The translations under genes were made by a program, and so were the position numbers. This document shows positions 25,851 through 64,000 of a stretch of DNA of 64,000 nt, in pieces. Source of the DNA: Desulfobacteraceae bacterium (lineage in GTDB: Bacteria; Desulfobacterota; Desulfobacteria; Desulfobacterales; Desulfolunaceae). The notes beneath the pieces were generated by a model. The model made no database searches and had not been told where the DNA came from. It saw only the letters and a list, made by a program, of their open reading frames with translations. Position 1 is the stretch's first letter. The number at the start of each line of letters is the position of its first letter. The stretch is from NCBI GenBank assembly GCA_041660385.1, contig JBAZWJ010000031.1:3137-67136 (forward strand), given 5' to 3'.

Positions 25851-25853
25851 TGT

Positions 25854-29603: not shown

Positions 29604-29618
29604 GTGCTTTCATTAACT

Positions 29619-31800: not shown

Positions 31801-31803
31801 AAC

Positions 31804-34510: not shown

Positions 34511-34570
34511 GTATGTGAGCTTTTTGGATTAATTGAGTTTGTTGATATTTTTACAACCCAAGTAACCCGA

Positions 34571-35782: not shown

Positions 35783-35795
35783 GATTCACCTTAAT

Positions 35796-37031: not shown

Positions 37032-37034
37032 TCA

Positions 37035-38501: not shown

Positions 38502-38570
38502 ATAAGTATTTTATTCCTGGCTTCTATTTGAAAAGTTCAAAAAGTGGGTTCACCCAATCAATTATCAGGG

Positions 38571-40352: not shown

Positions 40353-40374
40353 TTACCTAACCTTTGCGATGCTA

Positions 40375-42916: not shown

Positions 42917-42941
42917 GGGGCTGAAAGCATCTGATTCATTA

Positions 42942-44998: not shown

Positions 44999-45033
44999 GT
45001 GCTAATTCCTTCACTATTGAGCAATATTAAAGG

Positions 45034-45597
45034 TCATTTATTAGTAACAATAAAATCTTGACTACCTTTAAAGTTGATTATCTTCGCAGGGATTCCAACG
45101 GCCACAGCATTGTCAGGGAGATCTATCGTTACGACAGAATTTGCACCTATGGCCACATTATCTCCGATGGTTATGCCACCAAATATTTTTGCTCCTGGGG
45201 CAATATAGACACGGTTACCAATGACGGGCGTTTTCTGAATTCCATTACGTCCTGCCTGACCTATCGTGTTTTCATTGGAAATATTACAGTATTCACCCAT
45301 CACGGTTTTTGAACCAAGAATTATGCAGCCGAAATGACCAATGTACAATCCTTTACCGATTCGGGCTGTAAAAGGCAAATCAATACCGGTCATTATTTCT
45401 ACCATTTTTTTAAAAACAGTTAAAAAAGGCAGAATAATTCTCGGCCATATTTGGGATTTATTCTGATGGCACCATGATCCAGCACGGTAGACTATCGTTG
45501 CCCAGATCCCTTGCGTTAGTATAATCTTTTTTGTTTTAGATAAAAGTCCATCATTTTTTCTAAAATATCTTTTGATGTCTTCCCGAAGATAATCCAC
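45034..45597 (-). CDS. Left-handed beta-helix (hexapeptide) acyltransferase, CysE/WcaB-like
   Basis: 'IGKGLYIGHFGCIILG', 'VIGNRVYIAPGAKIFGGITIGDNVAIGANSVV', 'AVGIPAKII'. Confidence 0.75.
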   Translation of the reverse strand: MDYLREDIKRYFRKNDGLLSKTKKIILTQGIWATIVYRAGSWCHQNKSQIWPRIILPFLTVFKKMVEIMTGIDLPFTARIGKGLYIGHFGCIILGSKTVMGEYCNISNENTIGQAGRNGIQKTPVIGNRVYIAPGAKIFGGITIGDNVAIGANSVVTIDLPDNAVAVGIPAKIINFKGSQDFIVTNK

Positions 45598-45613
45598 TCT
45601 GATATTCTCAATC

Positions 45614-46708: not shown

Positions 46709-46727
46709 TTTAAATTCCATAATTTTA

Positions 46728-47849: not shown

Positions 47850-47892
47850 TCTGACACTTCAAATTATTTCACCAGCTGAACTTCTCAGCTTC

Positions 47893-49120: not shown

Positions 49121-49765
49121 CTATTTAATAATGAATTCATGGAATACCGGATAAAAAGCTTCGATAAATTGAAACGTCTTATCGTTGTAATATTTAATGG
49201 GCTTGGATCCAATGGGAATTGTTATCCTGACAAAGGCATTATCTTCACCCTGTCCCCTAAGTTTTTTCCATAATAATGCGATTTTTTGAGAAAATGTATT
49301 GGCGTTTGTTTTGTCGTGTGCCTGAAACCAGTATGTGATCAGCTCTTTTTGCTGGCCAAGTTCTCCTGTCATCACGGAATATGAAACTCGCTGGCCTGAC
49401 GCCAGGACACGCTGGTTGGTCTGTGAATTTGATATTTTCCAGCCCTGGCCGGGGAAGCACACCATGGGATCATGGGCTGCACCTATTTTTTTTGCTGAAT
49501 AATAGTAGCCGACGTACAGCATGATAGTGTCCTCGCCATCAGAATAGCTCTGATTGATATAATCATCCAGGTCAAGCGCATCTATTATGGGCTGGTCCAA
49601 CTTTGAGACATTGTCCCTTTCCCATCCGTTGAATGAAGTCAGAGCCGACGCGAGTTTCGTCTGTTTGTGCTGAGTGTGGGAAACCGGCTTGAAAAGAACA
49701 AGGATACCGGCAAGGGCCATGCATACGATCAATAATACTATTCTTTTACTGCTGAGTTGTCCCAA
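49121..49765 (-). CDS. EpsI-family exosortase-associated protein
   Basis: N-terminal TM anchor, 'FNGWERDN...LDLDDYINQSY......MLYVGYYYS....GAAHDPMVCFPGQGW', the EpsI pattern. Overlaps the exosortase gene by 28 nt. Confidence 0.7.
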   Translation of the reverse strand: MGQLSSKRIVLLIVCMALAGILVLFKPVSHTQHKQTKLASALTSFNGWERDNVSKLDQPIIDALDLDDYINQSYSDGEDTIMLYVGYYYSAKKIGAAHDPMVCFPGQGWKISNSQTNQRVLASGQRVSYSVMTGELGQQKELITYWFQAHDKTNANTFSQKIALLWKKLRGQGEDNAFVRITIPIGSKPIKYYNDKTFQFIEAFYPVFHEFIIK

Positions 49766-50583
49766 TGTGATAATACCTTTTTTATAATTGCGATAAGGAG
49801 CAATGCCAGACCAAAAACAACCAGGCCGAAAATGCTGTGGATTTTATCTTCAGTAAGATCAAAATCCATATAATGAAATGCCAGGATCATCAACAGAACC
49901 CTGAAAATATTAACAAAAACCGCCACAGGAAAACCTGATAAAAAAAGAATGGTTCTCAATATATTTGATGAAAGGGTCAGGTATCCAAAAACAGCGGACA
50001 GTGTCAGGAGCGATACCAGAGAACGGAGACCGCTGCACGCCTGGACAACCTGAAGTGTTCGATGGGGAAGGTGGATGACATTCCCTTCTCTTAAAAGCGG
50101 GATATCAAAAAGACCGGAAATAAACACACTGGCTTGAGTTACAAATAACTGGAGAGGAATGGTCAGAGCGGAATAAATTTGTGACGGAATCGGTACGATG
50201 AAGAAAAGAAAACAAAGGGGAAAAATCAGTTCTTTGACAAAACCATAGCCCAGAATATAAATCACGGTGCTGAAAAGAAACAAAACCATGGACACAGGGG
50301 CCAGGGTCTGTATGTCAGCATATTTCGCAAGCAGATAAAGGATAAGGGACATAATAACAAAAAGCAGCCCGCTTTTTTCCGGCTTCACAGGTATTTTGGC
50401 AATATGATCTTTTTTCTGCCACATAATGTAAAGACTGATGGGAAAAATAAACAATCCGTAGGAATGATCATCTGAATTCATCCAGAGCTGAATGAGACTT
50501 TTCAGTACAGGAAAAAATAAAATAATGAATCCCGCAGTAAAAATACCAAGCAGTATTTTATTATCACTTATAATTTTATTCAC
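49738..50583 (-). CDS. Exosortase (EpsH/Xrt family)
   Basis: 8-TM protein; 'WMNSDDHSYGLFIFPISLY', conserved Cys motif 'VQACSGLRSL', downstream Arg/His-containing helices. GTG start at 50583. A PEP-CTERM substrate is encoded at 18442. Confidence 0.85.
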   Translation of the reverse strand: MNKIISDNKILLGIFTAGFIILFFPVLKSLIQLWMNSDDHSYGLFIFPISLYIMWQKKDHIAKIPVKPEKSGLLFVIMSLILYLLAKYADIQTLAPVSMVLFLFSTVIYILGYGFVKELIFPLCFLFFIVPIPSQIYSALTIPLQLFVTQASVFISGLFDIPLLREGNVIHLPHRTLQVVQACSGLRSLVSLLTLSAVFGYLTLSSNILRTILFLSGFPVAVFVNIFRVLLMILAFHYMDFDLTEDKIHSIFGLVVFGLALLLIAIIKKVLSHWDNSAVKE

Positions 50584-50670: not shown

Positions 50671-53600
50671 TTACTTATAATATTTTTGCATATATTCATA
50701 GAATTTTTCCACGAGAAGCGGTTCCTCCATAAACTCCATATGTTTGGCTGGGATATCAATCACGTCAATATTACCAACAATATAGTTGTTCCACCCTTTA
50801 TCCATATCAATTTTCAAACCATGATGTGCTTGTGGCTCAGCAAATAGAACCATATCTCCGTCATATCGTCTTGGAGTATAAGCCAGTACAGGCTTCCAGT
50901 GTTTCTGTTCAACATACCAGTATCTCAATTTGTGTGGGATCGGTCTCTGTATGGAATGATAAAAATTACAGAGACAGAACTTCAGCTGAATAACTATTTT
51001 CCTTTGAATGCTTTCAAGTATCTTCTTGAATTGCTCCTTGAAAGTGGTGCCATGTCGCTTGCTGAAAATCAAAGCATTAAATTTATTAACCATTTTGGTC
51101 ACTATCGTATCATTTGAAAATGACGGGTTGTTCTTAAAATAAATTGGGGCAAAGGTATCAAACATGGCCAGAAGTGCAATATCCTGGCCTTCATGTTTCA
51201 ACTGCTGGGCAACCTCATAGGCAATGAACCCGCCCATGGACCCTCCAGCCAGATAATAAGGCCCTGATGGCTGAATCATTTTCATTTCCGCAATATAGTG
51301 ACCTGCCATTTCCTCTATGGATGAATAGGGTTCAGACAGGCCATCAAGGCCTCGTGCCTGTAGTCCATATACCGGTTGATCAGCGTCAAGTCCTGATGCA
51401 AGAGGATAATAATTAAGGACATTACCTCCAATAGCGTGCATGCAGAATATGGGCGTTTTACTTCCGTTTGGCTTAATGGCCACAAGATGGGACCAGCCTG
51501 ATTTCTCGTCCTTTTCGTTTTCTGATGATGCAAATAAAAAGCGATTCAGAAATTTATTGCCATTCTTTTTATCTTTAATTCTGCCGCCTGATGCTTCAAT
51601 GGTCTTCGAAAGTTCGCGGACTGTCGGTGATTTAAAAATCTCCGCCAGAGGCAGATTAATCCCTGTGAGATTATAAATTTCGGAGAATATGCGAACAGAC
51701 AGTATTGAATGGCCTCCGACTTCAAAAAAGTTGTCATTGACCCCGATGTATTCAAGGCCGATGATATCCAGCCAGATTTTTAAAATCCTCGTTTCGAGTT
51801 CGGTGATCTGCGTATTCTGCTGGACTTCGGTAATAAGCGTTGACACGGGCTTCGGAAGACGATTCCTGTCGATCTTTCCGTTAGATGTCATCGGCATGGA
51901 ATCAAGGTTTACAAAATGTTGAGGAATCATGTATTCAGGCAGTCTATCTTTCAAGTACAGCCGCAAGTCGCTGTCTTTTTCTTGAACACCCGTACGTGAA
52001 ATAATATAGGCAACAAGCCTTTTATCATCAGGGACATCCTCTCTGACCAGTGTTACGCATTGTTTGATTCCCTTGTGTTCAGCCAGAGCCGCTTCAATTT
52101 CACCCAGTTCTATTCTGAACCCGCGCAGCTTGACCTGATGATCCATACGCCCGAGATAGCAGATAGTCCCATCGGGAAAATATTTTGCAAGATCACCTGT
52201 CCTGTATAACCTGGATGCTGGATCATCGCTCATGAAATCAGATACGAATTTTTCCGATGTCAGTTCCGCACGGTTGAGATACCCTCTGGCAAGTCCGTGG
52301 CCTCCAATATAAAGCTCACCTGGAACGCCAATAGGCACTGGATTTTGGAACGGATCAACAAGAAATATGCGGGTATTTGAAATCGGCTTCCCGATTGTGG
52401 CCATCTCGTTTTTCTGTCTTAAAGCACAGGTCGAATACGTTGTGTCTTCCGATGGCCCATAAAGATCGAAAACACGTTGAACTGTTTTTATATTGTACAA
52501 CCTGTCAACGATTTCCTGTTTAAGGGGTTCGCCTGCCAGGTTGATGGTCGTGACATTCGCGGGGATAGCTTTGAGCTGAAGCAGTTCAACAATTGCTGAA
52601 GGAACCGTATTGATGAGCCTGACCTCTGATACGTCAGGCAGGTTTTTCAATCCCATGGCATTATCCGCCAGAACAATCTTGCCTCCCGAACACAAGGGCA
52701 AGAAAATCTCAAAAACAGATAAATCAAAGCAGATGGAGGTGGAAGCAAGCATCCCACCAATTTCATCTCCGGTGAACACTGTCCTTGCCCAGGCGATAAG
52801 TGCGATCGCACTGCGATGTTCAATTGCAACGCCTTTGGGAACGCCAGTTGAACCTGAAGTGTAGATTATATAAGCAAGATTTTTCTGGGTTGCTCCTGAA
52901 GAAGGAGACTCCATGCATGCCTTTGAGTGTTTTTCTCCAAGGGCCTCCAGCGTTATCAATCTTGCGGTTGAATCGGAAAACAGCGTTTCAAATTTCTTCT
53001 GGGTGATGATTACACGACTGCACGAATCGGACATCATGAATTTGAGGCGTTCAACGGGATAACCCGGGTCAAGAGGCACATACGCACCGCCCGCTTTAAG
53101 CACAGCCAGCATTCCAACAATCATGTCCATGGATCTTTCAACACAGATCCCCACCAGAACATCCGGCTCCACACCCATCTGGATCAACTCAATGGCAAGC
53201 TGATTTGAGCGCTGTTTCAGTTCGTTGAAACTCATCCTGTCATGGTTATGAACAATCGCAACGGCATCAGGTGTTTTTTCAGCCTGCATGTCAAACATAT
53301 CATGAATACAGACATCGCCAGGATAATCCAGATGATTTTCATTCCAGTCGATGAGCATCAGCCTTTTTTCCGGTTCTGTCAGCAAGCCGATTTTCTGAAT
53401 AGGCAATGTCGGGTTTTCAACCATACTTTGGAGTAATGTCTGAAAATGGTCGACCATGCGCTGAATGGTTTCATCTTTGAATATTTCATCACTGTATTCA
53501 AAGACGCCTCGCAGTTCATCACGTTCCTCCCACATGTACAGCGATAGCTCAAATTCCGTTGCCCCTCTATCCATGACAACAGGGAAAAAATTCAATTCCG

Positions 53601-56600
53601 CAGAGTCATCTGAGGGTAAAGGAAAATTCTGGAATGCAAACATGACCTGGAAGATCGGATGGTGATTGAGAGAACGATCCGGCTGTAGAATTTCAACAAG
53701 TTTCTCGAAAGGAAGATCTTTATTGGACAAGGCGTCCAGAATCAGTTGATGAACCTGTTTGACCAAATCCTTGAAACCCGTTGTTTCGGACAGTTCAAGG
53801 CGAATCGGCAGCATGTTGATAAAAAAACCTATCAAACCTTCAATTTCAACCCTGTCGCGATTCGCGTAGGGTGTGCCCACGACCACACCATTCTGGTTTG
53901 AATATTTGCATAGAAGTGAAAAATAGGCTGAAAGCAGGACGGTGTAAACCGTTGTGTGTTCCTGTTTTGCCATATTCTGAATACTTCGAGTCAATTCAGC
54001 TGAAAGACATATCGCCTGATGCCTGCCCGTATATCGGGGCGACATGGGCCGAGGATAATCCGCTGGCAACTGGATAACAGGAAGTTCTCCTTTTAACCGT
54101 TCTTTCCAGTATTTTTTTTGTTCATTCAGATCGTTATTTATAAGCCATTTTTTCTGCCAAATGGCATAATCCGCATACTGGATTGGGAGTTTTTCCAATG
54201 GAGATGGTCGGCCTTCTTTAAAAGCGTGATAAAGAACCGATAACTCTTTCATCCATACACCCATGGACCATCCGTCGGCGATAATATGATGCAGGATGAT
54301 TGCAAAAATATGCTCTGTTTTTCCAGTTTGAAGGATGCAGACTCTAAGCAGCGGGCCGTTCTCCAAATCAAAAAGAACAGGGGCTTTTCTGGCGATCAAC
54401 CGGCGGGCATATTCTTCGCCTTGCTCCCCATCTTTATCTGTGCAGACTATCTTTTCGATTTTTATCGATTGCAGCGAAACACGCTCTATCGCCGGGCGAC
54501 CATCCCTTTTTATAAATACGGTTCTCAACACATCGTGACGGGCCAGGATATGATCAAAAGCTTTCTGAAGTATTTCCTCATTCAGATCTCCTGAAAGTTT
54601 CACGGCTTGAACGATATTGTAAGCGGGGCTATGGGATTCCAGCTGATTAATGAACCATAAACGCTGCTGGGCCAGCGAAAGTTGCAAACCTTCATTTTCA
54701 GACTCAGGCACAATGGTCTCAATTTTTTTACGTTCAGCACCGGAACTCTGCTCCCTGCTCAGGTAATCGGCAAGGCCTTGAATCGTAGGGAGTTCAAATA
54801 TTTTGCGAATGGACAGATCAGATCCTGACTGTTCACGGATGCGAGATATGATCTGGGCAGCGATAAGCGAGTCACCACCCAATTCGAAAAAGCTGTCCTG
54901 AACACCTATCTGATCGATCCCCAGGACGTCCTGCCAGATGCGAACAAGCATATGTTCCATTTCACAGGAAGGCCGGTCATAATCACTTGAAACACTTGAA
55001 GGTCGGGAATACAAGGACGACGCTTCGATATGAACCACTTCGGGTCTTTCATGGCCTTCGTTTGTCACACTGGAAGAAATCTGATAGCCCTTCTGGGCTG
55101 TGGGTTCAATCCAGAAACGCTGTCTTTGAAAAGGATAACCTGGCAAGGGAACCCGCCCGCACCCCTTCCCTTTGTTAAATGCACTCCAGTCAATATGAAC
55201 ACCTGTAATCCATAACTGTGAAAGTGTCTTATAAAGAAAGGCCCCATCATGACCCTGACTTTGCGGGTGCTTAACTGAAGAATAAATCATAACGGATTTT
55301 TCTTTATCAACGATGTTCTGCCTTGAAAGCGTTGTCAACGTCTGACCGGGACCGACTTCGAGAAGAACACAGGGCTCTTCGATAAGGGTCTGGATACCTT
55401 TTGAAAAACGTACGGTTTGACGAAGGTGACGCGCCCAGTATTCCGGGTTAGTGGCATCACGCTCTGTAATCCATGTTCCCGTTACATTGGAAATGAAAGG
55501 AATTTGAGGATTATTCAACGGCACTGTCTTTAAATATTCTCTCAACGGATCAATGGCACCTTCCATCATCTGGGAATGGAAGGCGTGGGAGGTATGAAGA
55601 ACCGTGCATTGTACTTTCTTGCTGTTCAATGTCTCATGAAGCCTGGCAATGTCATCTGAAGGGCCTGAGACCACACATCGGCCCGGAGAATTGATAACGG
55701 CCAGGGAAACGGGGTTGTCCACAAAAGGCAGAATGTCCTTTTCAGAAAGGGCAACAGCGAGCATGTCACCATGCGGCTGCTGCTGCATAAGCCTGCCCCT
55801 TTCTGCAACAAGTTTTAAAGCATCTTCAAGGGTAAAAACACCGGATAAACAGGCTGCCACATATTCACCCAGGCTGTGACCAATCATCGCATGGGGATAA
55901 ATTCCCCATTCCATAAACAACCGTGCAAGGGAGTACTCCAGTGCAAACAACGCGGGCTGAGCGATTTCCGTTTCATTCAGTCTGTTTTGAGAATATGTGC
56001 CATCATTATCTTCAGGATAAATCAATGCCGTAAGATCACAGCCGATAACCGGTGCAAGTATCTCAGAACAGGCCATCATATGCTGTTTGAAAATCGGCTC
56101 CGTTTCAAAAAGATCCCTGGCCATGTTGACATACTGTGCCCCCTGCCCCGTAAACATAAAGGCAGCCTTTCTGTTGTCGGCTAAACATGATCCAGAAATG
56201 AATTTTCCCGGATCAGTTGAAGAAAAGGCGTTTACAGCATCGGCCACGTTTTTGCACACACATGCTGATCTGTGCCGAAATGCTTTTCTTCCTATCTGAA
56301 GAGTGTAAGCCACATCACCGGCATTCTGAGCAGGGTTTTCTGAAAGGTAGCTGCACAAACGAGAGCGCCTTTGCTCAAGTGCTTGCGCCGATTGAGCTGA
56401 AAGCGTGAAAAGATACCATGGCTGACCTTGTCTATTTTTAAGCTCTTCTCTGGGAACCTCTTCAAGAATGACATGAGCATTGGTTCCCCCCACACCAAAG
56501 GAGCTGACACCGGCCCTTCTCGGCGACATGGAATCATCCCATGAACGCAAGGCTTTATTTACATAAAAAGGGCTTCCCTCCATATTCAACTCAGGATTGA

Positions 56601-59600
56601 CAGTTGTCACATTCAGGGTGGGGGGCAGGACGCCATGCTTGACCATGAGACTCGTTTTGATAAGACCAGCCACACCAGCCGCCACATCCAGATGCCCGAT
56701 GTTGGACTTTAAAGAACCAATGGCGCAAAAAGACTTTTTATCTGTTTTACTTCTGAAAGCCTGGGTGAGAGCTTTAACTTCAATCGGGTCACCCAGTGGT
56801 GTTCCTGTCCCGTGGGCCTCGACATAACCTATGGTTGCAGGATCAACGCGGGACATGTTCTGGGCCATGGCAATAACTTCAGTCTGCCCCTGGACACTGG
56901 GCGCTGTATATCCCACTTTCACATTGCCGTCATTGTTCAATGCTGCCCCTTTTATGACAGCATAAATATGATCGTGGTCTTCTATGGCATCTTCCAGGCG
57001 TTTTAAAAGAACAACACCTGCACCCTCCCCTAAAAGCGTTCCTGATGCTTTACTGTCAAAGGGTCTGCAATACCCATCATCAGAGAAAATTTCTCCTTCA
57101 TGGTGGAGATAGCCTCTTAACCGGGGGGCCTGAAGAGATACTCCCCCGCCTATGGCCATATCGCATTGATATGTCAAAAGGCTCTGATATGCAAGCTGGA
57201 CTGCGACAAGTGAAGTCGAGCATGCGGTTTGAACCGAAAGACTCGGGCCTTTAAGGCCGAGCTTGTAGGAAACCCTCGTTGAAAGAAAGTCTTTATCATT
57301 ACCGATGAATGTCTGAAAATTGAGAACAGACTCCATCAATTCTGGGCGTTCAAGCAGATTTTTAATAAGGTAGTTGTTCATGCCGCATCCAGCAAAAACT
57401 CCCACTGTGCCTGTATAATGATCTGGAACATAACCCGCATCTTCAAAAGCATCCCAGGCGCATTCAAGAAATATTCTCTGCTGGGGATCAATCTTTTCAG
57501 CTTCCCGAGGTGTATACCCAAAAAAACCTGCGTCGAAACAATCTGAATTATTTAATACAGGGCTTCTTTTAACATATTTCGGATTTTTTATTAAATATTC
57601 CGGGACACCTGATTTCAGAAGTTCTTCGTCGGAAAAATCAGTGATAGACTCAATGCCGTTTACAATATTACGCCAGAAAAGGGATATATCATCGGCTCCT
57701 GGAAATCGACCGGCCATTCCAATAATGGCCACATCTGCTGATCTGTTTCCTGGCTGTGCCCATGTATCTCTTACCATACAGGGAATTTTACTCGTAAGAT
57801 CATGAGGTTCAGAAAGACCAGTGTGTTTAGCCTGAATGATATAATTCGACATCATTTGTATGGTGGGATTCTCGAACATATCGACAATCGATATCTTCAT
57901 TCCATACATTTTTGACAGGCGAATCACAATGCCCGGCATAAGAATCGAACGTCCGCCAATATCAAAAAAGTTATCATTCATGCCGATATCATCAAAACAT
58001 AGAACCTCAGCCCAGACAGAAGCCACATTTTTTTCAGTCTGGGAAACAGGAAAGACAACTGACTGATCTGATCGCAACTGTACGGATGCCTGTTTCTTCA
58101 TTCTCTGATCCACGGCGGCCATAATGCTTTTCAGACTTGAAAACGTGTCGGCGATTTCCTGCATGACAAGGGCGTTTGCCAAAGAAACACCCGTGTCTTT
58201 ATCAGTTGTTTTTCGGACTTCCCCGTCTTCGGATGTTTTTTCTGTTGCTGAAGAAGGACTAAAAGAGGCTTCTGAGGCGATTTGAGAGGGTAAAAGAAAA
58301 AACAGCCCTTCGCCTTCCTGTTGTTTGTATTCCTCGCCAAGGGATAAAAGGAAATTTAATGCTGGCTGATTTTTATTTGTGGGCGAATAATTTAAGCGGA
58401 CAGATTTCAAACCTCGATCTATGGCGTTTCTTCCAAGACGATTAAGCAATGCATGTTCAACACCCTTTCCAAGTGCACGGCAGCTCAAAAGAAAGGTATC
58501 AACACTTATCTGATCTTTTTGCTTTTCGTAAATAACCAGGCCGACCAAGCCATAATCACCAAATTTATCCGATACTTCAGCGACCAGACAGACATGATTT
58601 TCAGACAGCTTGAGCCTTGAAATTTCAGATTCATTTCTTCTTATCGTTGTGAGATTGAACTGGTTTGTTCTCAGAGTCAACTGGGAGACTCTCTGAATCT
58701 GAGCATCTTTTATCTCAGATATTGAAACATTCAAATCAAGATTTTTCAGAAATTCATCAAATGTCGTTGAAGATTTCAGCAAGCTGCTTCTTTCTTTCTC
58801 CTTGCGGTAAAGATCAACTCTCTCACGATCTTCTTTTGTCAGTTTAAGATGGTCAAAGGCCCAGATATGTTTCGTAAAATCTTTTATCTTTTCAGGATCA
58901 GACGGAAGCTGAAGCGTGAGGACTTCCGGGCAGTTCGCTCGAACTTCCGCACATTCCACAGGATTGTCATCGATAAAGATAAAGCTGTCCAGCCCAATAT
59001 TGATCTCCTCTGCAAGTTCCGCAATATTCTGTGATTTCGGAGACCAGTTAATCTTACTGTATGAGATATGATTTCTTCGAAGAATCATTTCGGGATTTTT
59101 ATCGAGAACATCCAGCACATCTTCTTCTGAATTTTTACTACACAGGCAAATCAGCGTTCCTGCTTCATGCTGGGATACCATAAGTTCCTGAAGCATTTTT
59201 CTGGCTGGATCAACCGTGACACGTAGGGGACCATCTTCGCCGACCACGCCTTTCCAGAGGGTCTGGTCGCAATCGAGAACAATCGCTTTATAAGGTTTTC
59301 CGAGAATGGAAAAAGATTTTCTTGCAATGATGTATGAAAGAGCTGCAAAGAATTCATCGGTATAAGGGATATGACCGGCATCCAGACCAAGGGGTTCGTC
59401 GTACTGTTCAACACCCATTGGGCCCAGGATTTCACGGCTGCTGACAGGGTAGATATTCCCAATGCTGTTCAGAGAAAGAGCCAAGTCATTCTCAATTCGA
59501 TTCAACAAGGGATTTTCTGCCAGAGCAGGAGAAATCGGGCAGAAACAAATCAGAACCGGAACACTGGACTCTGCAACAAAAGCCTGAACTGCCCCTAAGA

Positions 59601-61464
59601 ATTCATCTTTATTCTGCTCAAGAGTCTGTTTGACTTTACCATCGTCAACCACGGCATGTGATATGCCGGGTATGTCCTTAATCCAGTCCTCAAGGCGGAC
59701 CAGAATAACATTGACCCCCTTGATATTTTTTCTGAACATGCTGCTCGGGTCCAGGAGCTGCTGAAAAATCTGATTGTATGGAGCGAACTGCACGGATTTT
59801 TTAAAAGCAAGCTTGTCAACCCAGAAATCCAGAGGGTCTTTCAGTAAATCCGCTGTATAAGTCGCCGCAATAGCAATACATTGTTTTTCATCAAAACCCG
59901 TTTCTTCCTGTGATTGAATATCTTTTTCAATTTTTACAGGAAAATCAGAAACAAGCGTTTCAGGCTCATCAATGGCACGGACCAAATATTCACAGAACGA
60001 TTCTGTAAAAACAGCAATTGTCTTTTCAGAAAATATATCGGTGTTGTATTTAAAAGCACAGGCGAATTTTTCTCCCGTGTTAATCATTTCGAGAGTCAGG
60101 TCAAATTGACCTTCCTCCTGATCGATGGGGAATGGCAGTATTTTCAAACCACCAAAATCAACAGGAGTGTCAAAGGAAGCCCCGTGGAGAAATTGCGACG
60201 CCGAACCGAGCGTTTTTTGATCAAGTAAATTGAACATGGCCTGAAAAATGGGGGACCTTGAAGGATCCCTCGCCGGCATTAAATCTTCAACCAGAACAGG
60301 AAACGGATAATCCTGATGGTCCAGGGCAGTCAGAACAACCCGCCTTGTTTTAAAAAGATGGTCCCTGAATGTTTGAGAATCGGAAAACCTGGCTCTCATC
60401 ACAACCGAATTGATAAAATTCCCGCAGATGTTTTTGAATTCATTTCGTCCACGACCTATCACCGGCGATCCAACAAGGATATCCTCGCTTCTGCTGTAGC
60501 GCATCAGAAAAAGCTGAAACAATGCAAGAAAAAAGGTGTACTTTGTAACCGATTCCTGATGACAGAACACTTCGATTTTTTTGAAAAGTTCATCACTGAA
60601 ATTAAAATATAATGAACTTCCTTTATAACTTGGCGCATGGGGTCTGTTAAAGTCAGAAGGCAGGTCAAGTGCCGGAAGGCTTCCTCCAAGCTGAGAAACC
60701 CAGTACGTTTTATGTCTCTGCCCAACCTCTTTTTTGAGCATATCATTCTGCCAGTAAGTAAAATCCTTATACTTACCGTTTATTTCGGGTAGCTGAATTT
60801 TATTTCCGCTGCTCTCCGAAGCATATAACAAACTCAAATCGTTAAGAAGCATTCCAAGAGAATAAGCATCACAGGCAATGTGATGAATGGTTATCATCAA
60901 AATATAATCGTCTGTTTTTATTTTAAATAAATGCAGTCGGAATACGGAATCATTTTCAAGGTCAAAGGGTTTGGAATAATACAATTCAAGTCTGGATTTC
61001 AATTCATGTTCCGGCCAGCCGGAAGCATCGATTGGGTATAGTACAGGTTTTAAATTTTTATTTACGATCATGAATGACTGATCACCTGCAGTGCCCACTC
61101 CATAGGCATAGGTTGATCGAAGAATACCATGCCTGTCAACAAGCATGTTTACCGCACTTGATAATGCCTCCACATTTAATTCAGAAACAACCCTGCAGGA
61201 AGCAGCGATATGATAGCACGATGAGGCCGGAGCAATCTGATGCATGAACCAGAGTGATTGCTGATTATATGACAAGAGTTCTTTTACCCTGTCAGCATCA
61301 TCCTCAGCTGAGAGATAACGGATGATATCCGATTTATTCAGAGAAAGTGTTTGATGAAGATCAGACGTCAATGCGCCTTTTGGCGCCCGGTATTTCAATT
61401 TTCCGGAATCAACCCACAAACTGATATGCCGTTCCTGTAAGCTTTCAAGAATCTGTGAAATCAT
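50671..61464 (-). CDS. Hybrid PKS/NRPS megasynthase: dock-C-FkbH-ACP-KS-AT-ACP-C-A-PCP-TE
   Basis: Single uninterrupted ORF. Domain motifs are listed in the sub-features below. Start set at ATG 61464 (MISQILESL...), which shares one base with the upstream TGA (TGATG); the ORF track begins 7 codons earlier at 61485. Confidence 0.9.
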   Translation of the reverse strand: MISQILESLQERHISLWVDSGKLKYRAPKGALTSDLHQTLSLNKSDIIRYLSAEDDADRVKELLSYNQQSLWFMHQIAPASSCYHIAASCRVVSELNVEALSSAVNMLVDRHGILRSTYAYGVGTAGDQSFMIVNKNLKPVLYPIDASGWPEHELKSRLELYYSKPFDLENDSVFRLHLFKIKTDDYILMITIHHIACDAYSLGMLLNDLSLLYASESSGNKIQLPEINGKYKDFTYWQNDMLKKEVGQRHKTYWVSQLGGSLPALDLPSDFNRPHAPSYKGSSLYFNFSDELFKKIEVFCHQESVTKYTFFLALFQLFLMRYSRSEDILVGSPVIGRGRNEFKNICGNFINSVVMRARFSDSQTFRDHLFKTRRVVLTALDHQDYPFPVLVEDLMPARDPSRSPIFQAMFNLLDQKTLGSASQFLHGASFDTPVDFGGLKILPFPIDQEEGQFDLTLEMINTGEKFACAFKYNTDIFSEKTIAVFTESFCEYLVRAIDEPETLVSDFPVKIEKDIQSQEETGFDEKQCIAIAATYTADLLKDPLDFWVDKLAFKKSVQFAPYNQIFQQLLDPSSMFRKNIKGVNVILVRLEDWIKDIPGISHAVVDDGKVKQTLEQNKDEFLGAVQAFVAESSVPVLICFCPISPALAENPLLNRIENDLALSLNSIGNIYPVSSREILGPMGVEQYDEPLGLDAGHIPYTDEFFAALSYIIARKSFSILGKPYKAIVLDCDQTLWKGVVGEDGPLRVTVDPARKMLQELMVSQHEAGTLICLCSKNSEEDVLDVLDKNPEMILRRNHISYSKINWSPKSQNIAELAEEINIGLDSFIFIDDNPVECAEVRANCPEVLTLQLPSDPEKIKDFTKHIWAFDHLKLTKEDRERVDLYRKEKERSSLLKSSTTFDEFLKNLDLNVSISEIKDAQIQRVSQLTLRTNQFNLTTIRRNESEISRLKLSENHVCLVAEVSDKFGDYGLVGLVIYEKQKDQISVDTFLLSCRALGKGVEHALLNRLGRNAIDRGLKSVRLNYSPTNKNQPALNFLLSLGEEYKQQEGEGLFFLLPSQIASEASFSPSSATEKTSEDGEVRKTTDKDTGVSLANALVMQEIADTFSSLKSIMAAVDQRMKKQASVQLRSDQSVVFPVSQTEKNVASVWAEVLCFDDIGMNDNFFDIGGRSILMPGIVIRLSKMYGMKISIVDMFENPTIQMMSNYIIQAKHTGLSEPHDLTSKIPCMVRDTWAQPGNRSADVAIIGMAGRFPGADDISLFWRNIVNGIESITDFSDEELLKSGVPEYLIKNPKYVKRSPVLNNSDCFDAGFFGYTPREAEKIDPQQRIFLECAWDAFEDAGYVPDHYTGTVGVFAGCGMNNYLIKNLLERPELMESVLNFQTFIGNDKDFLSTRVSYKLGLKGPSLSVQTACSTSLVAVQLAYQSLLTYQCDMAIGGGVSLQAPRLRGYLHHEGEIFSDDGYCRPFDSKASGTLLGEGAGVVLLKRLEDAIEDHDHIYAVIKGAALNNDGNVKVGYTAPSVQGQTEVIAMAQNMSRVDPATIGYVEAHGTGTPLGDPIEVKALTQAFRSKTDKKSFCAIGSLKSNIGHLDVAAGVAGLIKTSLMVKHGVLPPTLNVTTVNPELNMEGSPFYVNKALRSWDDSMSPRRAGVSSFGVGGTNAHVILEEVPREELKNRQGQPWYLFTLSAQSAQALEQRRSRLCSYLSENPAQNAGDVAYTLQIGRKAFRHRSACVCKNVADAVNAFSSTDPGKFISGSCLADNRKAAFMFTGQGAQYVNMARDLFETEPIFKQHMMACSEILAPVIGCDLTALIYPEDNDGTYSQNRLNETEIAQPALFALEYSLARLFMEWGIYPHAMIGHSLGEYVAACLSGVFTLEDALKLVAERGRLMQQQPHGDMLAVALSEKDILPFVDNPVSLAVINSPGRCVVSGPSDDIARLHETLNSKKVQCTVLHTSHAFHSQMMEGAIDPLREYLKTVPLNNPQIPFISNVTGTWITERDATNPEYWARHLRQTVRFSKGIQTLIEEPCVLLEVGPGQTLTTLSRQNIVDKEKSVMIYSSVKHPQSQGHDGAFLYKTLSQLWITGVHIDWSAFNKGKGCGRVPLPGYPFQRQRFWIEPTAQKGYQISSSVTNEGHERPEVVHIEASSLYSRPSSVSSDYDRPSCEMEHMLVRIWQDVLGIDQIGVQDSFFELGGDSLIAAQIISRIREQSGSDLSIRKIFELPTIQGLADYLSREQSSGAERKKIETIVPESENEGLQLSLAQQRLWFINQLESHSPAYNIVQAVKLSGDLNEEILQKAFDHILARHDVLRTVFIKRDGRPAIERVSLQSIKIEKIVCTDKDGEQGEEYARRLIARKAPVLFDLENGPLLRVCILQTGKTEHIFAIILHHIIADGWSMGVWMKELSVLYHAFKEGRPSPLEKLPIQYADYAIWQKKWLINNDLNEQKKYWKERLKGELPVIQLPADYPRPMSPRYTGRHQAICLSAELTRSIQNMAKQEHTTVYTVLLSAYFSLLCKYSNQNGVVVGTPYANRDRVEIEGLIGFFINMLPIRLELSETTGFKDLVKQVHQLILDALSNKDLPFEKLVEILQPDRSLNHHPIFQVMFAFQNFPLPSDDSAELNFFPVVMDRGATEFELSLYMWEERDELRGVFEYSDEIFKDETIQRMVDHFQTLLQSMVENPTLPIQKIGLLTEPEKRLMLIDWNENHLDYPGDVCIHDMFDMQAEKTPDAVAIVHNHDRMSFNELKQRSNQLAIELIQMGVEPDVLVGICVERSMDMIVGMLAVLKAGGAYVPLDPGYPVERLKFMMSDSCSRVIITQKKFETLFSDSTARLITLEALGEKHSKACMESPSSGATQKNLAYIIYTSGSTGVPKGVAIEHRSAIALIAWARTVFTGDEIGGMLASTSICFDLSVFEIFLPLCSGGKIVLADNAMGLKNLPDVSEVRLINTVPSAIVELLQLKAIPANVTTINLAGEPLKQEIVDRLYNIKTVQRVFDLYGPSEDTTYSTCALRQKNEMATIGKPISNTRIFLVDPFQNPVPIGVPGELYIGGHGLARGYLNRAELTSEKFVSDFMSDDPASRLYRTGDLAKYFPDGTICYLGRMDHQVKLRGFRIELGEIEAALAEHKGIKQCVTLVREDVPDDKRLVAYIISRTGVQEKDSDLRLYLKDRLPEYMIPQHFVNLDSMPMTSNGKIDRNRLPKPVSTLITEVQQNTQITELETRILKIWLDIIGLEYIGVNDNFFEVGGHSILSVRIFSEIYNLTGINLPLAEIFKSPTVRELSKTIEASGGRIKDKKNGNKFLNRFLFASSENEKDEKSGWSHLVAIKPNGSKTPIFCMHAIGGNVLNYYPLASGLDADQPVYGLQARGLDGLSEPYSSIEEMAGHYIAEMKMIQPSGPYYLAGGSMGGFIAYEVAQQLKHEGQDIALLAMFDTFAPIYFKNNPSFSNDTIVTKMVNKFNALIFSKRHGTTFKEQFKKILESIQRKIVIQLKFCLCNFYHSIQRPIPHKLRYWYVEQKHWKPVLAYTPRRYDGDMVLFAEPQAHHGLKIDMDKGWNNYIVGNIDVIDIPAKHMEFMEEPLLVEKFYEYMQKYYK
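50674..51480 (-). other. Domain: thioesterase (alpha/beta hydrolase)
   Basis: 'PIFCMHAIGGNVLNYYPLA', nucleophile elbow 'GGSMGG' (Ser codon 51238-51240), C-terminal 'IPAKHMEFM' (putative His). Confidence 0.8.
51586..51798 (-). other. Domain: peptidyl carrier protein
   Basis: 'NFFEVGGHSILSVRI', Ser codon 51706-51708. Confidence 0.85.
51855..53283 (-). other. Domain: adenylation domain (hand-read code DLFNNALTYK)
   Basis: 'LKAGGAYVPLDP', 'LAYIIYTSGSTGVPKG', 'FDLSVFEIF', 'NLAGEPL', 'LYGPSEDTTYST', 'GELYIGGHGLARGY', 'YRTGDLAKY', 'KLRGFRIELGEIE', 'NGKIDR' (Lys codon 51874-51876). Confidence 0.85.
53380..54705 (-). other. Domain: condensation domain C2 (canonical HHxxxDG)
   Basis: 'LSLAQQRLWFINQ', 'HHIIADGWS' (His codons 54286-54291), 'YADYAIWQ', 'IGFFINMLPIR'. 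No DxxxxD cyclisation motif. Confidence 0.85.
54736..54963 (-). other. Domain: carrier protein 2 (ACP)
   Basis: 'SFFELGGDSLIAAQI', Ser codon 54868-54870. Confidence 0.85.
55320..56166 (-). other. Domain: acyltransferase (malonyl-type motifs)
   Basis: 'FMFTGQGAQY', 'GHSLGEY' (Ser codon 55873-55875), 'HAFHS' (the HAFH motif usually indicates malonyl-CoA). Confidence 0.85.
56445..57735 (-). other. Domain: ketosynthase
   Basis: 'DVAIIGMAGRFPGA', active-site 'TACSTSLVAV' (Cys codon 57220-57222), 'EAHGTGTPLGDPIE', 'KSNIGHLDVAAG', 'GGTNAHVILEE'. Confidence 0.9.
57811..58038 (-). other. Domain: carrier protein 1 (ACP)
   Basis: 'NFFDIGGRSILMPGIV', Ser codon at 57946-57948. Confidence 0.75.
58290..59868 (-). 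other. Domain: FkbH-like (HAD subfamily IIIC + GNAT-like tail) glyceryl-loading domain
   Basis: 'CIAIAATYTADLL' N-region, HAD motif I 'AIVLDCDQTLWKGVVGEDG' (Asp codon 59272-59274), 'ICLCSKN', 'FIFIDDNPVE', 'FGDYGLVGLVIY...FLLSCRALGKGVE'. Confidence 0.75.
59941..61278 (-). other. Domain: condensation domain C1 (His motif HHIACDA)
   Basis: 'LSYNQQSLWFMHQ', 'HHIACDAYS' (His codons 60880-60885), 'YKDFTYWQ', 'GNFINSVVMR'. G of HHxxxDG is replaced by A. Confidence 0.8.
61300..61464 (-). other. Domain: TubC-type N-terminal docking domain
   Basis: 'ISQILESLQERHISLWVDSGKLKYRAPKGALTSDLHQTLSLNKSDIIRYL' matches the '...GV.LW.eG..LryrAPkGaLt..L...L..hK..il..L' pattern (from memory). Confidence 0.6.
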
Positions 61465-62780
61465 CAAATTTCTCCCTCTTCCCATTCCACAGGTTCTGTT
61501 TTTGAAATATGTGATACCATCACCGTGTTCGATTCCTGGTCTGCAATTCCATGCGTCATTTTCAAAAAATCTTCATCATGATGAGTTGTTGCGTTACTAC
61601 TTAAATATTCGATTTTTTCAGCAAGGTCTGCGATGCTCTGACCCTCAAAAAAATCCATGAGAGACAAAAGAATTCCCAGTTCCGATTCAATTGTACTGAT
61701 CACGTCCACAGCCATCAACGAATCAAGACCCAGATCAATAAAACGCGAACCAGGTAGTATATCATTTTCTTCCATGCGAAATGCTTGAGCAATTAATCTG
61801 CGGATATAATCCACAATATCCGTCCTGCTTTTCATGGATTCAATACGTTTAGCCGTCAAATCTGTTTTTTCAGGGGAATTCGTGGCATCATTTGAAATAA
61901 GATGAATCGAATCTATTGAGCCCTGTCTTTCTTTCTTATTTTCAATTGATCTGCAACCAGCATTTGCGGTTTCGATCTTTTCACCCCCGGCAACAAAAAG
62001 CTGACGATAAATTGCGTGGTCATCCGCTTTCAAAACCTGATGCCATTTTACAGCGAGCTTATCTAAGATACGCGAATCTAAAAATCCATCTTTCACCAGT
62101 TTGGCTGGAATACCCACACCCTCTGATTTTAAAAAAATGTCATCTCCAACAAGACTGTTATGGGCGCAAATAATTTCCATATCAACATTCTTAAAACCGC
62201 ATTGTTTTAATAAATTAGGCAATTGCCGTCCGATTTTCGGGTTTCCACCTTCACTGATTCTTGACTTGCAGTACGCTTCGTATAATGTGTTTATTTCAGG
62301 AATTCCCGGAAAGGTTTTTAAATGCATTTCAAAATCGTTATCTACGAAAACCGCAATACCGCCGGGCTTGAGCACACGATTAATTTCCCAGACAGCCTCT
62401 TCCGGTTCCGGCAGATGTTCCAGAACAAGTCGCGTAATGACAAAATCAAAACAGTTATCTTTGAAGCCCAGTTGTGTTACTGACTGCTGCGAAACTTTTA
62501 TTTTTCTCTTTTCAGCAACACATTTGAGAATGGCAACGAGATATGAATCAATTTCAATGGCTGTTGAAGTGCAGTTTGGGAATTCATTCAAAATCTTTTC
62601 TGTGACATATCCAGGACCGCTGCCACATTCAAGTATGGACATGCCGTCGGTCAATCCAAATTGCCTGTAACACCTTATTTCCTTTTCCCAAAACAAATCA
62701 ACCTGAGCTTTAAGGCGATCGACTTCTCCTTGGACGTCAGTTGAAAATTGCTTAATTTTATATGATCTTTTATGAGTCAT
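61464..62780 (-). CDS. Class I SAM-dependent methyltransferase fused to a C-terminal acyl carrier protein domain
   Basis: Motif I 'ILECGSGPGYVT', post-I 'AIEID', 'FDFVITRLVLEHL', 'LKPGGIAVFVD'. C-terminus 'FIDLGLDSLMAVDVISTIESELG' (Ser codon 61719-61721). Confidence 0.8.
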   Translation of the reverse strand: MTHKRSYKIKQFSTDVQGEVDRLKAQVDLFWEKEIRCYRQFGLTDGMSILECGSGPGYVTEKILNEFPNCTSTAIEIDSYLVAILKCVAEKRKIKVSQQSVTQLGFKDNCFDFVITRLVLEHLPEPEEAVWEINRVLKPGGIAVFVDNDFEMHLKTFPGIPEINTLYEAYCKSRISEGGNPKIGRQLPNLLKQCGFKNVDMEIICAHNSLVGDDIFLKSEGVGIPAKLVKDGFLDSRILDKLAVKWHQVLKADDHAIYRQLFVAGGEKIETANAGCRSIENKKERQGSIDSIHLISNDATNSPEKTDLTAKRIESMKSRTDIVDYIRRLIAQAFRMEENDILPGSRFIDLGLDSLMAVDVISTIESELGILLSLMDFFEGQSIADLAEKIEYLSSNATTHHDEDFLKMTHGIADQESNTVMVSHISKTEPVEWEEGEI

Positions 62781-62843: not shown

Positions 62844-63515
62844 CTATTTACTTGTTCCAAGGGCATCAACAAGCTTTTTTGACCATAACTCATATCCAGC
62901 CTTATTTGGAAAAGCACCATTTCGATCAGAATATTCCAGAATATAATGGTAGTCTTTCGTCAATATATCGTTCAGTTCTAAAAATTTAATGGAATTAACA
63001 GTGCAAAAAATTTTCAAATTTTTGTTTAATTTTAAAACACTGACAGCATACTCTTCCATATCAAATTTATCAGGAACAGCAATCAAGGCAGATTGTACAA
63101 TTATGGTAATACCTTTATCTCTTAATTGTTCGATAACATACTTATATTTTTCAAAAACACGTTCAGGTTTGTCACCAAGATAAATATCAAAACCATTTGC
63201 AGTGATGATGCATATTTCAGGCTTTGCCCTGATTATATCATTCAGATGTTTGTTTACAATGTCGATGCTGCCGCCCCGGCTTCCAATAAACAGGATATCA
63301 TCGTTCGATAATAACTCTCTCCATTTATTATTAATTAAAGAATCACCTGTCATGACCATATATTTTTTTGGGGCTGGCAAAAGACTTTTAACACCAAAGT
63401 ATTTTTTCAATACTTTAGCAGGGACATGATAGTGGAAAAGCATATAGCAGAATATCAAAAGAAATAAGATATTTAACGATATTGAAACGTAGACAAGGCA
63501 GGATTTTATATTCAT
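62844..63515 (-). CDS. Membrane-anchored SGNH/GDSL-like protein
   Basis: N-terminal TM helix, 'VMTGDSLINN' (block I GDS), 'GSRGG' (block II-like). The block V region 'SDRNGAFPNKAGY' lacks an obvious His, so catalytic competence is uncertain. Confidence 0.5.
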   Translation of the reverse strand: MNIKSCLVYVSISLNILFLLIFCYMLFHYHVPAKVLKKYFGVKSLLPAPKKYMVMTGDSLINNKWRELLSNDDILFIGSRGGSIDIVNKHLNDIIRAKPEICIITANGFDIYLGDKPERVFEKYKYVIEQLRDKGITIIVQSALIAVPDKFDMEEYAVSVLKLNKNLKIFCTVNSIKFLELNDILTKDYHYILEYSDRNGAFPNKAGYELWSKKLVDALGTSK

Positions 63516-63544
63516 ATGCTATGCAACTTTAAAAAATAAAAGCA

Positions 63545-64000
63545 TTACAGATTCATTGTTTTAAGTAAGGGGATCAATTCATTCTTCCACACTTGATACC
63601 CTTTATCACTCATGTGGACGCCGTCAGACGAATAATCCATGATCAAATGACCTGATTTGGAAAGTTTAGAATTAAGATCAAGAAACAGTATACCCTTCTC
63701 TTTTGAGTATTGATTCAGCATTGAATTCAGCATATCGACTTCTTTGTTCTGCTCTTTATAAAATAATTTCACAGGTGCAACATATATAAGGGATTGGATG
63801 ACAATCTTCATATTTTTTTTCAGCATTTTATCTATCAGTATTTTGTAATCATCAAACGTTTTTTCAGGTGTTTTCATCCAGAACATATCGTTTATGCCGA
63901 TCATGACCAAGCATAATTCCGGCTTTAACTCAGATGCGAAGTCAACACGCTCAAGGATGTCTTCAATCTGCCCTCCACGAATCGATACCATGTCGTTTCG
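63545..64000 (-). CDS. SGNH/GDSL hydrolase, 5' end beyond the window
   Basis: 'IRGGQIEDI' (block II), 'MIGINDM' (block III GxND), 'DGVHMSDKGY' (block V DxxH). The frame is still open at nt 64000, so the true start (and block I) lies outside the window. Confidence 0.65.
   Translation of the reverse strand, partial: RNDMVSIRGGQIEDILERVDFASELKPELCLVMIGINDMFWMKTPEKTFDDYKILIDKMLKKNMKIVIQSLIYVAPVKLFYKEQNKEVDMLNSMLNQYSKEKGILFLDLNSKLSKSGHLIMDYSSDGVHMSDKGYQVWKNELIPLLKTMNL

Follow-up and report, generated by a model that had tools for sequence, protein, structure and literature searches.

A predicted two-protein start of a polyketide synthase-nonribosomal peptide synthetase assembly line, with an Art28-family methyltransferase-ACP and a C-FkbH module, beside exosortase genes in a Desulfobacteraceae bacterium

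A stretch of 64,000 nucleotides from a Desulfobacteraceae bacterium (NCBI GenBank assembly GCA_041660385.1, contig JBAZWJ010000031.1, positions 3,137 to 67,136 of the forward strand), called in its whole length the window below, encodes a megasynthase that begins with a docking domain, a condensation (C) domain, an FkbH unit in the place of an adenylation (A) domain, and a carrier. This arrangement raises the question of which acyl group the first condensation domain (C1) accepts, from which protein, and what it is joined to. We propose, with moderate confidence, that the locus encodes the two-protein start of an assembly line of combined polyketide synthase (PKS) and nonribosomal peptide synthetase (NRPS) type, in which a methyltransferase fused to an acyl carrier protein (MT-ACP) would load a methyl-malonyl unit and C1 would use it to esterify the glyceryl group that FkbH places on the first carrier of the megasynthase (T1). 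The C-FkbH-T esterifying module and Art28-type initiation are both already known; what is new here is the probable methyl-malonate donor and the place of the genes, which head an exopolysaccharide operon of the exosortase type. In the literature we found no description of a methyl-malonyl starter handed to a glycerate-acting C domain, nor of a link of such a start to an exosortase.

The minus-strand open reading frame 50671..61485 encodes one megasynthase of 3604 amino acids in which Pfam and NCBIfam profiles give the order docking-C-FkbH-carrier-ketosynthase (KS)-acyltransferase (AT)-ACP-C-A-peptidyl carrier protein (PCP)-thioesterase (TE). The segment 57811..61464 is its N-terminal third, and the domain profile matches there are strong and far above chance. 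Residues are numbered from the ATG at 61485; the true start is probably the ATG at 61464, which has one base in common with the TGA stop of the MT-ACP gene (TGATG) and is also where the preliminary description ended its module. The parts of this third are as follows.

61309..61461, minus strand: TubC-type beta-hairpin docking domain, residues 9-59 (Pfam TubC_N PF18563, 58.2 bits against a cutoff of 26)
59926..61299, minus strand: condensation domain C1, residues ~63-520 (Pfam Condensation, motifs, ranking of Protein Data Bank (PDB) entries, tree, identities)
60865..60885, minus strand: His motif HHIACDA of C1, residues 201-207 (translation)
59296..59883, minus strand: N-terminal extension of FkbH, residues ~535-730 (AlphaFold2 model with Foldseek match to 3slr, phmmer match to 3slr, PMC12304814)
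58786..59295, minus strand: HAD-IIIC phosphatase part of FkbH, residues ~731-900 (TIGR01686, 320 bits; TIGR01681, 67.5 bits)
58270..58785, minus strand: GNAT-fold acyltransferase part of FkbH, residues ~901-1072 (TIGR01686, motif, alignment, Foldseek)
58480..58482, minus strand: Cys1002 in FLLSCR (invariant in the alignment)
57835..58080, minus strand: carrier T1, PCP-like, residues ~1136-1217 (Pfam PP-binding; NCBIfam stretch 1141-1217)
57943..57957, minus strand: GGRSI of T1, within FFDIGGRSIL (motif position)

The preliminary description read this region as a C domain with the His motif HHIACDA, a full FkbH unit with LDCDQT, FIDDNP and a GNAT-like tail in place of an A domain, and a carrier with GGRS, and all of these are present. 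TIGR01686 matches residues 733-1053 with 320.3 bits (cutoff 146.65) over model positions 4-321 of 323, and Pfam finds no AMP-binding match in residues 1-1225; FkbH stands in the A-domain place. The FkbH motifs are DCDQTLW (residue 738), FIDDNP (837-842) and FLLSCR (998). In an alignment of 28 relatives, which includes FAAL-type (fatty acyl-AMP ligase) proteins resembling the vioprolide and corramycin enzymes (alignment numbering +530), D738, D740 and T742 of HAD motif I (DxDxT), K817, D839, D840 and C1002 are invariant. The preliminary description wished to see the catalytic Cys and Asp residues checked; the DxDxT and S/K/DD motifs of HAD and the Cys of LLSCR are all in place.

An AlphaFold2 model of residues 531-1130 has a mean predicted local distance difference test (pLDDT) score of 86.5. 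Its first 370 residues match PDB 3slr (Foldseek E 8e-20, target template modeling (TM) score 0.70), the phosphatase-containing N-terminal part of the uncharacterised protein BF1531 and also a phmmer match, and its C-terminal part matches GNAT acetyltransferases (Foldseek target TM scores 0.6-0.76). In a sequence search of solved structures 3slr was the sole match of the FkbH part, and no characterised FkbH was matched. The model thus identifies the stretch of about 200 residues that separates C1 from the HAD core as the N-terminal extension (NEX) described for FkbH-like proteins (PMC12304814), and the predicted fold is the three-part one of N-terminal extension, HAD and GNAT-like domain. In the OzmB scheme a phosphoglyceryl-S-enzyme is dephosphorylated and the glyceryl group is transferred to the carrier; by analogy Cys1002 would be the covalent site, an assignment made from its invariance and that scheme rather than from a matched OzmB residue number. 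A literature search on the position of the catalytic Cys and on FkbH structure gave nothing usable. We infer that the unit loads glycerate, and the OzmB scheme gives no reason for doubt. Such modules were at first taken to be unusual, a view that does not hold: in an exhaustive profile search with clustering at 50%, ~120 of the 150 top-ranked representatives have C and FkbH in one contiguous match, and E was still 1e-169 where this list ends. The module is therefore not rare but a common, though little studied, type that is known from vioprolide and corramycin.

The gene for the putative donor lies directly upstream, with the following features.

61464..62780, minus strand: MT-ACP gene, 438 amino acids (Pfam Methyltransf_11 and PP-binding)
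61971..62780, minus strand: O-methyltransferase (MT) domain, residues 1-270 (Pfam, identity to Art28-family genes)
61584..61835, minus strand: ACP, residues 316-399 (Pfam PP-binding, 55 bits)
61716..61730, minus strand: LGLDSL with the phosphopantetheine Ser (D353-S354-L355 invariant)
61467..61484, minus strand: C-terminal tail WEEGEI, candidate short linear docking motif (conservation)

MT-ACP is tied to C1 by three independent observations: the overlap of stop and start codons, natural fusions, and co-variation of the tail. The fusions are two proteins of the order MT-ACP-C-FkbH-carrier (P0004, 1610 amino acids; P0013, 1599 amino acids), which have neither the docking domain nor the tail. 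Free-standing MT-ACPs that precede a docking-C protein end in [WYF]EEGEI or close variants (the window, L004, L006, L007, L035, L046, L047, L061 and L062), and those that precede a KS (L015, L018, L027 and L031) have unrelated, partly basic tails. Within the window MT-ACP is the sole free-standing carrier and the sole protein with such a tail. TubC-type docking domains are beta-hairpin domains (alpha-beta-beta-alpha-alpha), and binding of a short charged C-terminal strand is the known mode of this class (PMC9113145); here a TubC-type domain is found downstream and a charged C-terminal motif upstream. The docking element had been called a TubC-like helix bundle, of which the kinship stands and the bundle does not. 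Delivery from MT-ACP through this domain had also been suggested, and the fusions and tails agree with it, so that MT-ACP is well supported by sequence as the partner of C1 through a predicted tail/docking pair. The gene order MT-ACP, C-FkbH-T-KS-AT-ACP-C-A recurs in metagenome-assembled genomes (MAGs) of Desulfobacterales, Spirochaetota and Fibrobacteres/Chitinispirillaceae.

What MT-ACP carries is best approached through its MT domain. Over their full length (~270 residues) this domain and its homologs are 53.0% (Brevibacillus formosus NRRL NRS-863, which we take to be the same type strain as DSM 9885), 50.4% (Thermoactinomyces daqus H-18) and 49.3% (B. spizizenii) identical. Against other models it scores only 44.6 bits (BioC), and 60 bits against the best PDB methyltransferase. 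A genome scan with an MT-ACP alignment gave 54 loci, and many Firmicutes have the MT alone (~273 residues) ahead of PKS genes; these MTs are the Art28 family. In the aurantinin pathway, Art28 places a methyl group on malonyl-ACP at its free carboxylate so that the unit can prime the PKS. Five homologs did the same in vitro, among them Thd235 of T. daqus H-18 and Brf335 of B. formosus DSM 9885; enzymes from the species T. daqus, B. formosus and B. spizizenii are among the active ones, and Art28-type initiation is known in hybrid clusters as well (PMC8302727). By sequence the MT domain is one of the malonyl-ACP O-methyltransferases of Art28 type, which makes the three-carbon methyl-malonyl-S-ACP the most likely donor. 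The donor is thus probably a methyl-malonyl unit rather than a fatty acyl group, and the idea of a glycerolipid-like acyl-glycerate starter gives way to it.

C1 itself appears to be a complete condensation domain. All seven core motifs, read by eye on the translation, are intact (SYNQQSLWF, RHGILRSTY, HHIACDA, YKDFTYW, GNFINSVVMR, HQDYPFP and RDPSRSPIF), so loss of the remaining motifs, which the preliminary description had named as a reason to abandon its view of C1, is not observed. Among solved structures C1 scores 198.2 bits with 8z0q, 179.5 with TycC6 (an LCL domain), 84.6 with the starter C domain of SrfA-A and 82 with SgcC5, a free-standing ester-former. It thus ranks as LCL-like and not as a starter (lipo-initiation) type, which bears on the placement among subtypes that had been called for. 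Characterised ester-forming C domains, VioA and BurF among them, group with the LCL types (PMC12304814), and the LCL-like score is therefore no argument against ester formation. The best structural match, 8z0q (unpublished), bears the title "Special condensation domain in NRPS" in the PDB, and a literature search on it found nothing relevant.

In a rough neighbor-joining (NJ) tree of 200 C domains from the homolog search, the domains that precede FkbH fall into at least two clades. C1 groups with docking-C domains found at the N-terminus of their proteins; another clade, beside other FAAL-ACP-C domains, contains those of the FAAL type (P0014, P0015, P0022, P0024 and P0026), and C1 is not orthologous to them in this tree, in which VioA itself is not included. 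The one protein that C1 matches best (47.9% identity) is P0036, of the order docking-C-A-PCP. Both P0036 and a related Desulfoluna butyratoxydans protein, P0077, have an MT-ACP gene ahead of them. With MT-ACP upstream and either A or FkbH as the loader of the acceptor, the clade thus tracks the donor partner. In two loci (L061, 6182-10447; L062 of D. butyratoxydans, 10001-15340) MT-ACPs with a WEEG[ED]I tail feed docking-C-A-PCP proteins whose C domains are 43-48% identical to C1, so that FkbH and A make a natural swap of the acceptor-loading unit.

The change of G to A in HHxxxDG was considered as a signature of ester formation and rejected, since some C-FkbH proteins keep the G and eight C domains of the NJ-tree set without a following FkbH have DA. 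Where FkbH follows (35 C domains of the set), 24 have DA and five have DG, counts that are not phylogenetically independent. On these sequences the change is a family habit and not a requirement. The MT-partnered C-FkbH subfamily has HHIACDA, with a conserved Cys where Ser is usual; the FAAL-partnered subfamily has HHIIADF, and the nearest A-partnered relative, P0036, has HHIACDG. One further C-FkbH-carrier protein with HHIACDA (P0007, at 10001-13666 of L064) has no docking domain and follows KS-AT-ACP and KS-DH-ACP proteins, DH being a dehydratase domain; there the group that C joins to glycerate as an ester would be a polyketide chain and not a starter.

The rest of the megasynthase is arranged as follows.

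55306..57735, minus strand: KS, residues 1251-1626, and AT, residues 1776-2060, with GHSLG and HAFH (Pfam; motifs from translation)
54760..54948, minus strand: ACP2, residues 2180-2242 (Pfam)
51586..54687, minus strand: C2 (HHIIADG), A domain and PCP (Pfam, pocket alignment)
50671..51453, minus strand: thioesterase domain and stop codon (Pfam Thioesterase, 90.7 bits)

The KS retains its Cys and two His, as read from the translation, and Pfam finds no ketoreductase, dehydratase or enoylreductase domain in the megasynthase. We take the AT motifs GHSLG and HAFH to be of the malonate type. The pocket residues of the A domain are identical in alignment to those of the McyA A domain of PDB 8jbr, presumably an alanine-activating domain; this match ruled out a Cys code, and a 640-bit match to LgrA was discarded because it summed two domains. 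An exact look-up of the megasynthase gave no record. A protein of 3597 amino acids in a library clustered at 50% (P0241) is 62% identical across the C-FkbH query and close in length to the megasynthase, and by sequence it is probably an orthologue of the whole.

Together these parts suggest the following course. MT-ACP would be the loading module, its ACP receiving malonate and its Art28-type MT capping the free carboxylate to give methyl-malonyl-S-ACP, and its acidic tail WEEGEI would dock on the beta-hairpin domain at the N-terminus of the megasynthase. FkbH would take 1,3-bisphosphoglycerate onto Cys1002, its HAD part would remove the phosphate, and D-glycerate would be passed to T1. A hydroxyl of glyceryl-S-T1 would then be the nucleophile for C1, giving the ester O-(methyl-malonyl)glyceryl-S-T1. 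KS-AT-ACP would add one malonate without reduction, C2-A-PCP an alanine-type amino acid, and the TE would release a product with an O-(methyl-malonyl)-dihydroxy-3-oxopentanoyl-alanine skeleton. If it were the 2-hydroxyl that is acylated, the 3-keto group would adjoin the malonyl methylene and, hypothetically, an intramolecular Knoevenagel closure could lead to a butenolide; such closure of comparable esters occurs in the malleicyprol pathway and is known for A-factor (PMC12304814). Ester formation by C1 is expected by analogy with VioA of the vioprolide pathway, and we likewise infer the methyl-malonyl donor, the hydroxyl that is acylated and the final product. Since MT-ACP would be the loading module and the product of C1 would be methyl-malonyl-glyceryl, C-FkbH-carrier is better described as extension module 1 than as the loading module it was first called.

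Several points weigh against this proposal. The MT-ACP/C-FkbH subfamily is known from sequence alone, and the sequences of L021 and L037 were equated with assayed proteins by strain name and not by accession. The scan of window genes, which extend 1.2 kb beyond MT-ACP on its upstream side, found no alpha/beta-hydrolase of the BioH/Art9 esterase type, whereas in related loci Esterase or Abhydrolase genes are close by. No malonate loader for MT-ACP was identified, and there is only one AT in the megasynthase. AMP-ligases that stand alone, and that could load a different acid, are found a few genes upstream of MT-ACP in L007 (1213-2787) and directly upstream of it in L047 (7650-9203). The closest relatives of C1 precede A domains and hence presumably make amides. 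Finally, the FAAL-type C domains form a separate clade, and the vioprolide analogy therefore rests on architecture and not on C-domain orthology. In two further loci (L004, 13784-17086; L062, 1997-5454) an Asn-synthase-like gene is found with a small ACP and a 316-residue protein of no assigned family; these genes, or the AMP ligases, could supply a second carrier-bound block or another donor in the related clusters.

The missing loader and the AMP ligases of L007 and L047 are in keeping with the most probable of the alternatives, which we nonetheless consider unlikely: C1 would form an ester as proposed, with MT-ACP carrying another acyl group (some acid loaded, for example, by a stand-alone AMP-ligase, or a fatty or dicarboxylic acyl) and the MT methylating its distal carboxylate or the glycerate. 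Methylated glycerate from FkbH loading modules is indeed known in aeruginosin-type pathways, with 2-O-methylglycerate in suomilide and dysinosin (PMC8609519). Against this stands the MT domain, about 50% identical over its full length to Art28-family genes of strains with assayed malonyl-ACP O-methyltransferases. Moreover, the same MT or MT-ACP precedes a KS in loci that lack any FkbH, and its substrate there therefore cannot be glycerate. Nor does any AMP-ligase adjoin MT-ACP in the visible window.

We give still less credit to the possibility that C1 is a non-condensing, structural or gate-keeping domain, in which case glyceryl-T1 alone would prime the KS and the MT-ACP product would go elsewhere. 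The bryostatin type of FkbH-ACP loading module has no C domain. That FkbH-ACP loading modules without a C domain exist (PMC8609519), that the G of HHxxxDG is replaced and that the nearest relatives of C1 act on amines are all in keeping with it. However, the seven motifs and the catalytic HHxxxD of C1 are intact and conserved across the subfamily, the fusions keep MT-ACP immediately ahead of C, the docking tail co-varies with docking-C, and the vioprolide precedent uses its C domain (PMC8949500). Least probable is a normal amide formed on a T1 that carries an amino-bearing three-carbon acid (from another FkbH substrate, or from glyceryl-T1 oxidised and transaminated in trans). The clustering of C1 with amide-forming docking-C domains and the DegT-type aminotransferases in the operon speak for it; against it, the 320-bit match to TIGR01686 covers FkbH from end to end, all catalytic-type residues are common to the vioprolide-like FAAL subfamily, the DegT enzymes are sugar aminotransferases among glycosyltransferases, and no dehydrogenase is adjacent.

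The ester-forming start proposed here can be compared with several known systems. The closest in architecture are vioprolide, with FAAL-ACP-C-FkbH-T and an ester-bond-forming C domain (PMC8949500), and ComK of corramycin, which has the same architecture and for which glycerate esterification is proposed (PMC10099666). As in VioA modules 1-2 and ComK, the C domain here comes directly before a complete FkbH that replaces the A domain, and a carrier follows; the FAAL-type relatives P0014, P0015, P0022 and P0026 are 38-39% identical over C-FkbH-T and have all FkbH motifs in common with it. The donor differs: VioA and ComK receive a fatty acid in cis from FAAL-ACP, whereas here there is no FAAL and MT-ACP would act in trans through the docking pair with what is probably a methyl-malonyl group. 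The C domains are of different clades (HHIACDA here, HHIIADF in the vioprolide-like FAAL type), the next module is a PKS module here and an NRPS module in the vioprolide/corramycin type, and the setting is a polysaccharide/exosortase locus here and a stand-alone antibiotic cluster there.

With the Art28 systems the locus has in common the MT family (~50% identity) and the predicted capping of carrier-bound malonate as a methyl ester for use as starter. In contrast to those systems, MT and ACP are parts of one protein here, and the starter would go to a C domain, for ester or amide formation, instead of a KS; in addition, no BioH/Art9-like esterase is seen in the window, where GDSL hydrolases lie upstream. 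BurF of the malleicyprol pathway (C-NEX-T-Red, Red being a reductase domain) has an integrated LCL-like ester-forming C domain that joins an active-methylene thioester to a carrier-bound alpha-hydroxy acid, with a remnant of the FkbH N-terminal extension after the C domain and Knoevenagel closure to a butenolide (PMC12304814). BurF has lost the phosphatase and acyltransferase parts, takes its hydroxy acid from another protein and ends in reductive release (PMC12304814), whereas here FkbH is complete and the carbonyl would arise by extension at the KS and not through a reductase. The stand-alone glyceryl-ACP synthases of the FkbH/OzmB type (methoxymalonyl-ACP and tetronate pathways) match the same TIGR01686 and have the same proposed 1,3-bisphosphoglycerate chemistry. 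They are discrete proteins that act with discrete ACPs, and their glyceryl group goes on to oxidation or to the closing of a tetronate ring; here, in contrast, the unit is embedded in a module and the hydroxyl would be the acceptor of a C domain.

If the proposed start is correct, it combines in one start module two recently described devices, malonate methyl-ester capping and esterification of carrier-bound glycerate, and its starter is highly oxygenated and not a lipid. Close relatives use one donor module and docking pair with either an A domain or an FkbH, a natural swap that could be useful for engineering and that suggests that a C domain needs few changes to take a hydroxyl in place of an amine. 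Members of the subfamily are spread over MAGs of uncultured Desulfobacterales, Spirochaetota and Fibrobacteres/Chitinispirillaceae, from which almost no natural products are characterised, and its recurrent polysaccharide/exosortase position makes it a concrete candidate for small-molecule chemistry tied to these poorly understood systems.

The surroundings of the two genes include the following.

49738..50583, minus strand: exosortase EpsH (TIGR02602, 226 bits against a cutoff of 105.55; Pfam)
49121..49765, minus strand: EpsI (TIGR02914, 110.9 bits; Pfam)
22166..49038, minus strand: polysaccharide operon, ~27 kb (profile scans)
18412..18996, plus strand: PEP-CTERM protein, 194 amino acids, tail VPEPATMFLFGLGLIGATISRRKVDI (TIGR02595, 26.9 bits against a cutoff of 16)
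62844..63991, minus strand: two GDSL/SGNH hydrolase genes upstream of MT-ACP (Pfam)

On the strand of the megasynthase and 87 bases after its end, EpsH begins. A scan for promoters and terminators gave counts equal to those of shuffled sequences and no terminator-like site between megasynthase and epsH; given the shuffles, nothing beyond that absence is concluded from it. The exosortase is not an XrtA by its model (203.7 bits against a cutoff of 208), and the models for the XrtA-associated FemAB, ligase, amidotransferase and glycosyltransferase all score far below their cutoffs in the window. An exosortase, EpsI and a PEP-CTERM protein, presumed to be the exosortase substrate, are all in the locus, as in PEP-CTERM/exosortase systems. 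The operon contains glycosyltransferases, UDP-GlcNAc 2-epimerase, DegT, FemAB-like, ATP-grasp, Wzy-like and flippase genes, together with Asn-synthase-like, two PGA_cap, PaaK-like ligase, deacetylase and MBOAT genes. By DnaG similarity (60% to Desulfatiferula, 50% to Desulfoluna) the window falls among uncultured Desulfobacterales.

Similar company is found elsewhere. In a Desulfosudis oleivorans MAG the homologous genes are rearranged, with an exosortase and a FemAB-like gene next to them. L007, from a Desulfobacterales MAG and with its 68% identical MT the closest relative, has DUF3473 deacetylase, FemAB-like, DegT, GT2 and phosphopantetheinyl transferase (PPTase) genes upstream, and polysaccharide genes lie within 10 kb in L002, L006, L007 and L063. 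Pfam scans of the upstream flanks of L047 (Spirochaetota) and L053 (Fibrobacteres) found no polysaccharide context, and no exosortase match was found in the remaining fetched loci. In anaerobes the assembly line might be a conserved companion of polysaccharide loci of the exosortase type. On this reading its product, a malonyl-glycerate-derived acyl-alanine and possibly a butenolide, would be bound to the exopolysaccharide or serve the exosortase system, for example as acceptor or anchor of PEP-CTERM proteins, and would not be a free antibiotic-like metabolite. The 87-base spacing, the Desulfosudis exosortase and the polysaccharide genes of the four loci speak for this, and the flanks of L047 and L053 and the other fetched loci against it; we regard it as speculative and rather improbable. 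A literature search for an association of exosortases with PKS or FkbH genes found no describing paper. Craig, Cherry and Brady (2011) reportedly linked N-acyl amino acid synthases to PEP-CTERM/exosortase loci. The likeness lies in a small acyl-amino-acid-type pathway that adjoins an exosortase system; those synthases are single GNAT-type enzymes unrelated to PKS-NRPS, and the exosortase link seen here is found in two genomes only.

The two GDSL/SGNH hydrolases are possible esterases whose membership in the pathway is uncertain. As a conserved esterase partner they were rejected, since GDSL genes were found in none of the related loci.

Within the polysaccharide operon, two PGA_cap (CapA-like) genes (30658..31800 and 35796..37031), a PaaK/DVU_1553-like AMP ligase (31804..33195), a RimK-like ATP-grasp gene (43970..44998) and an Asn-synthase-like amidotransferase (38571..40352), all on the minus strand, suggest amino-acid or acyl decoration of the polymer. 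GC content drops to 0.30 at 24-26 kb of the window. The PEP-CTERM protein has a paralogue without the sorting tail and two broken copies nearby (among them 16546..17127 and 19306..19776, both on the minus strand), and transposase-like open reading frames at 15595..16494 and 20287..21383 separate the PEP-CTERM copies. Outside the operon, 12872..14719 on the plus strand encodes a protein of 615 amino acids in which a long TPR region is joined to a YcaO domain.

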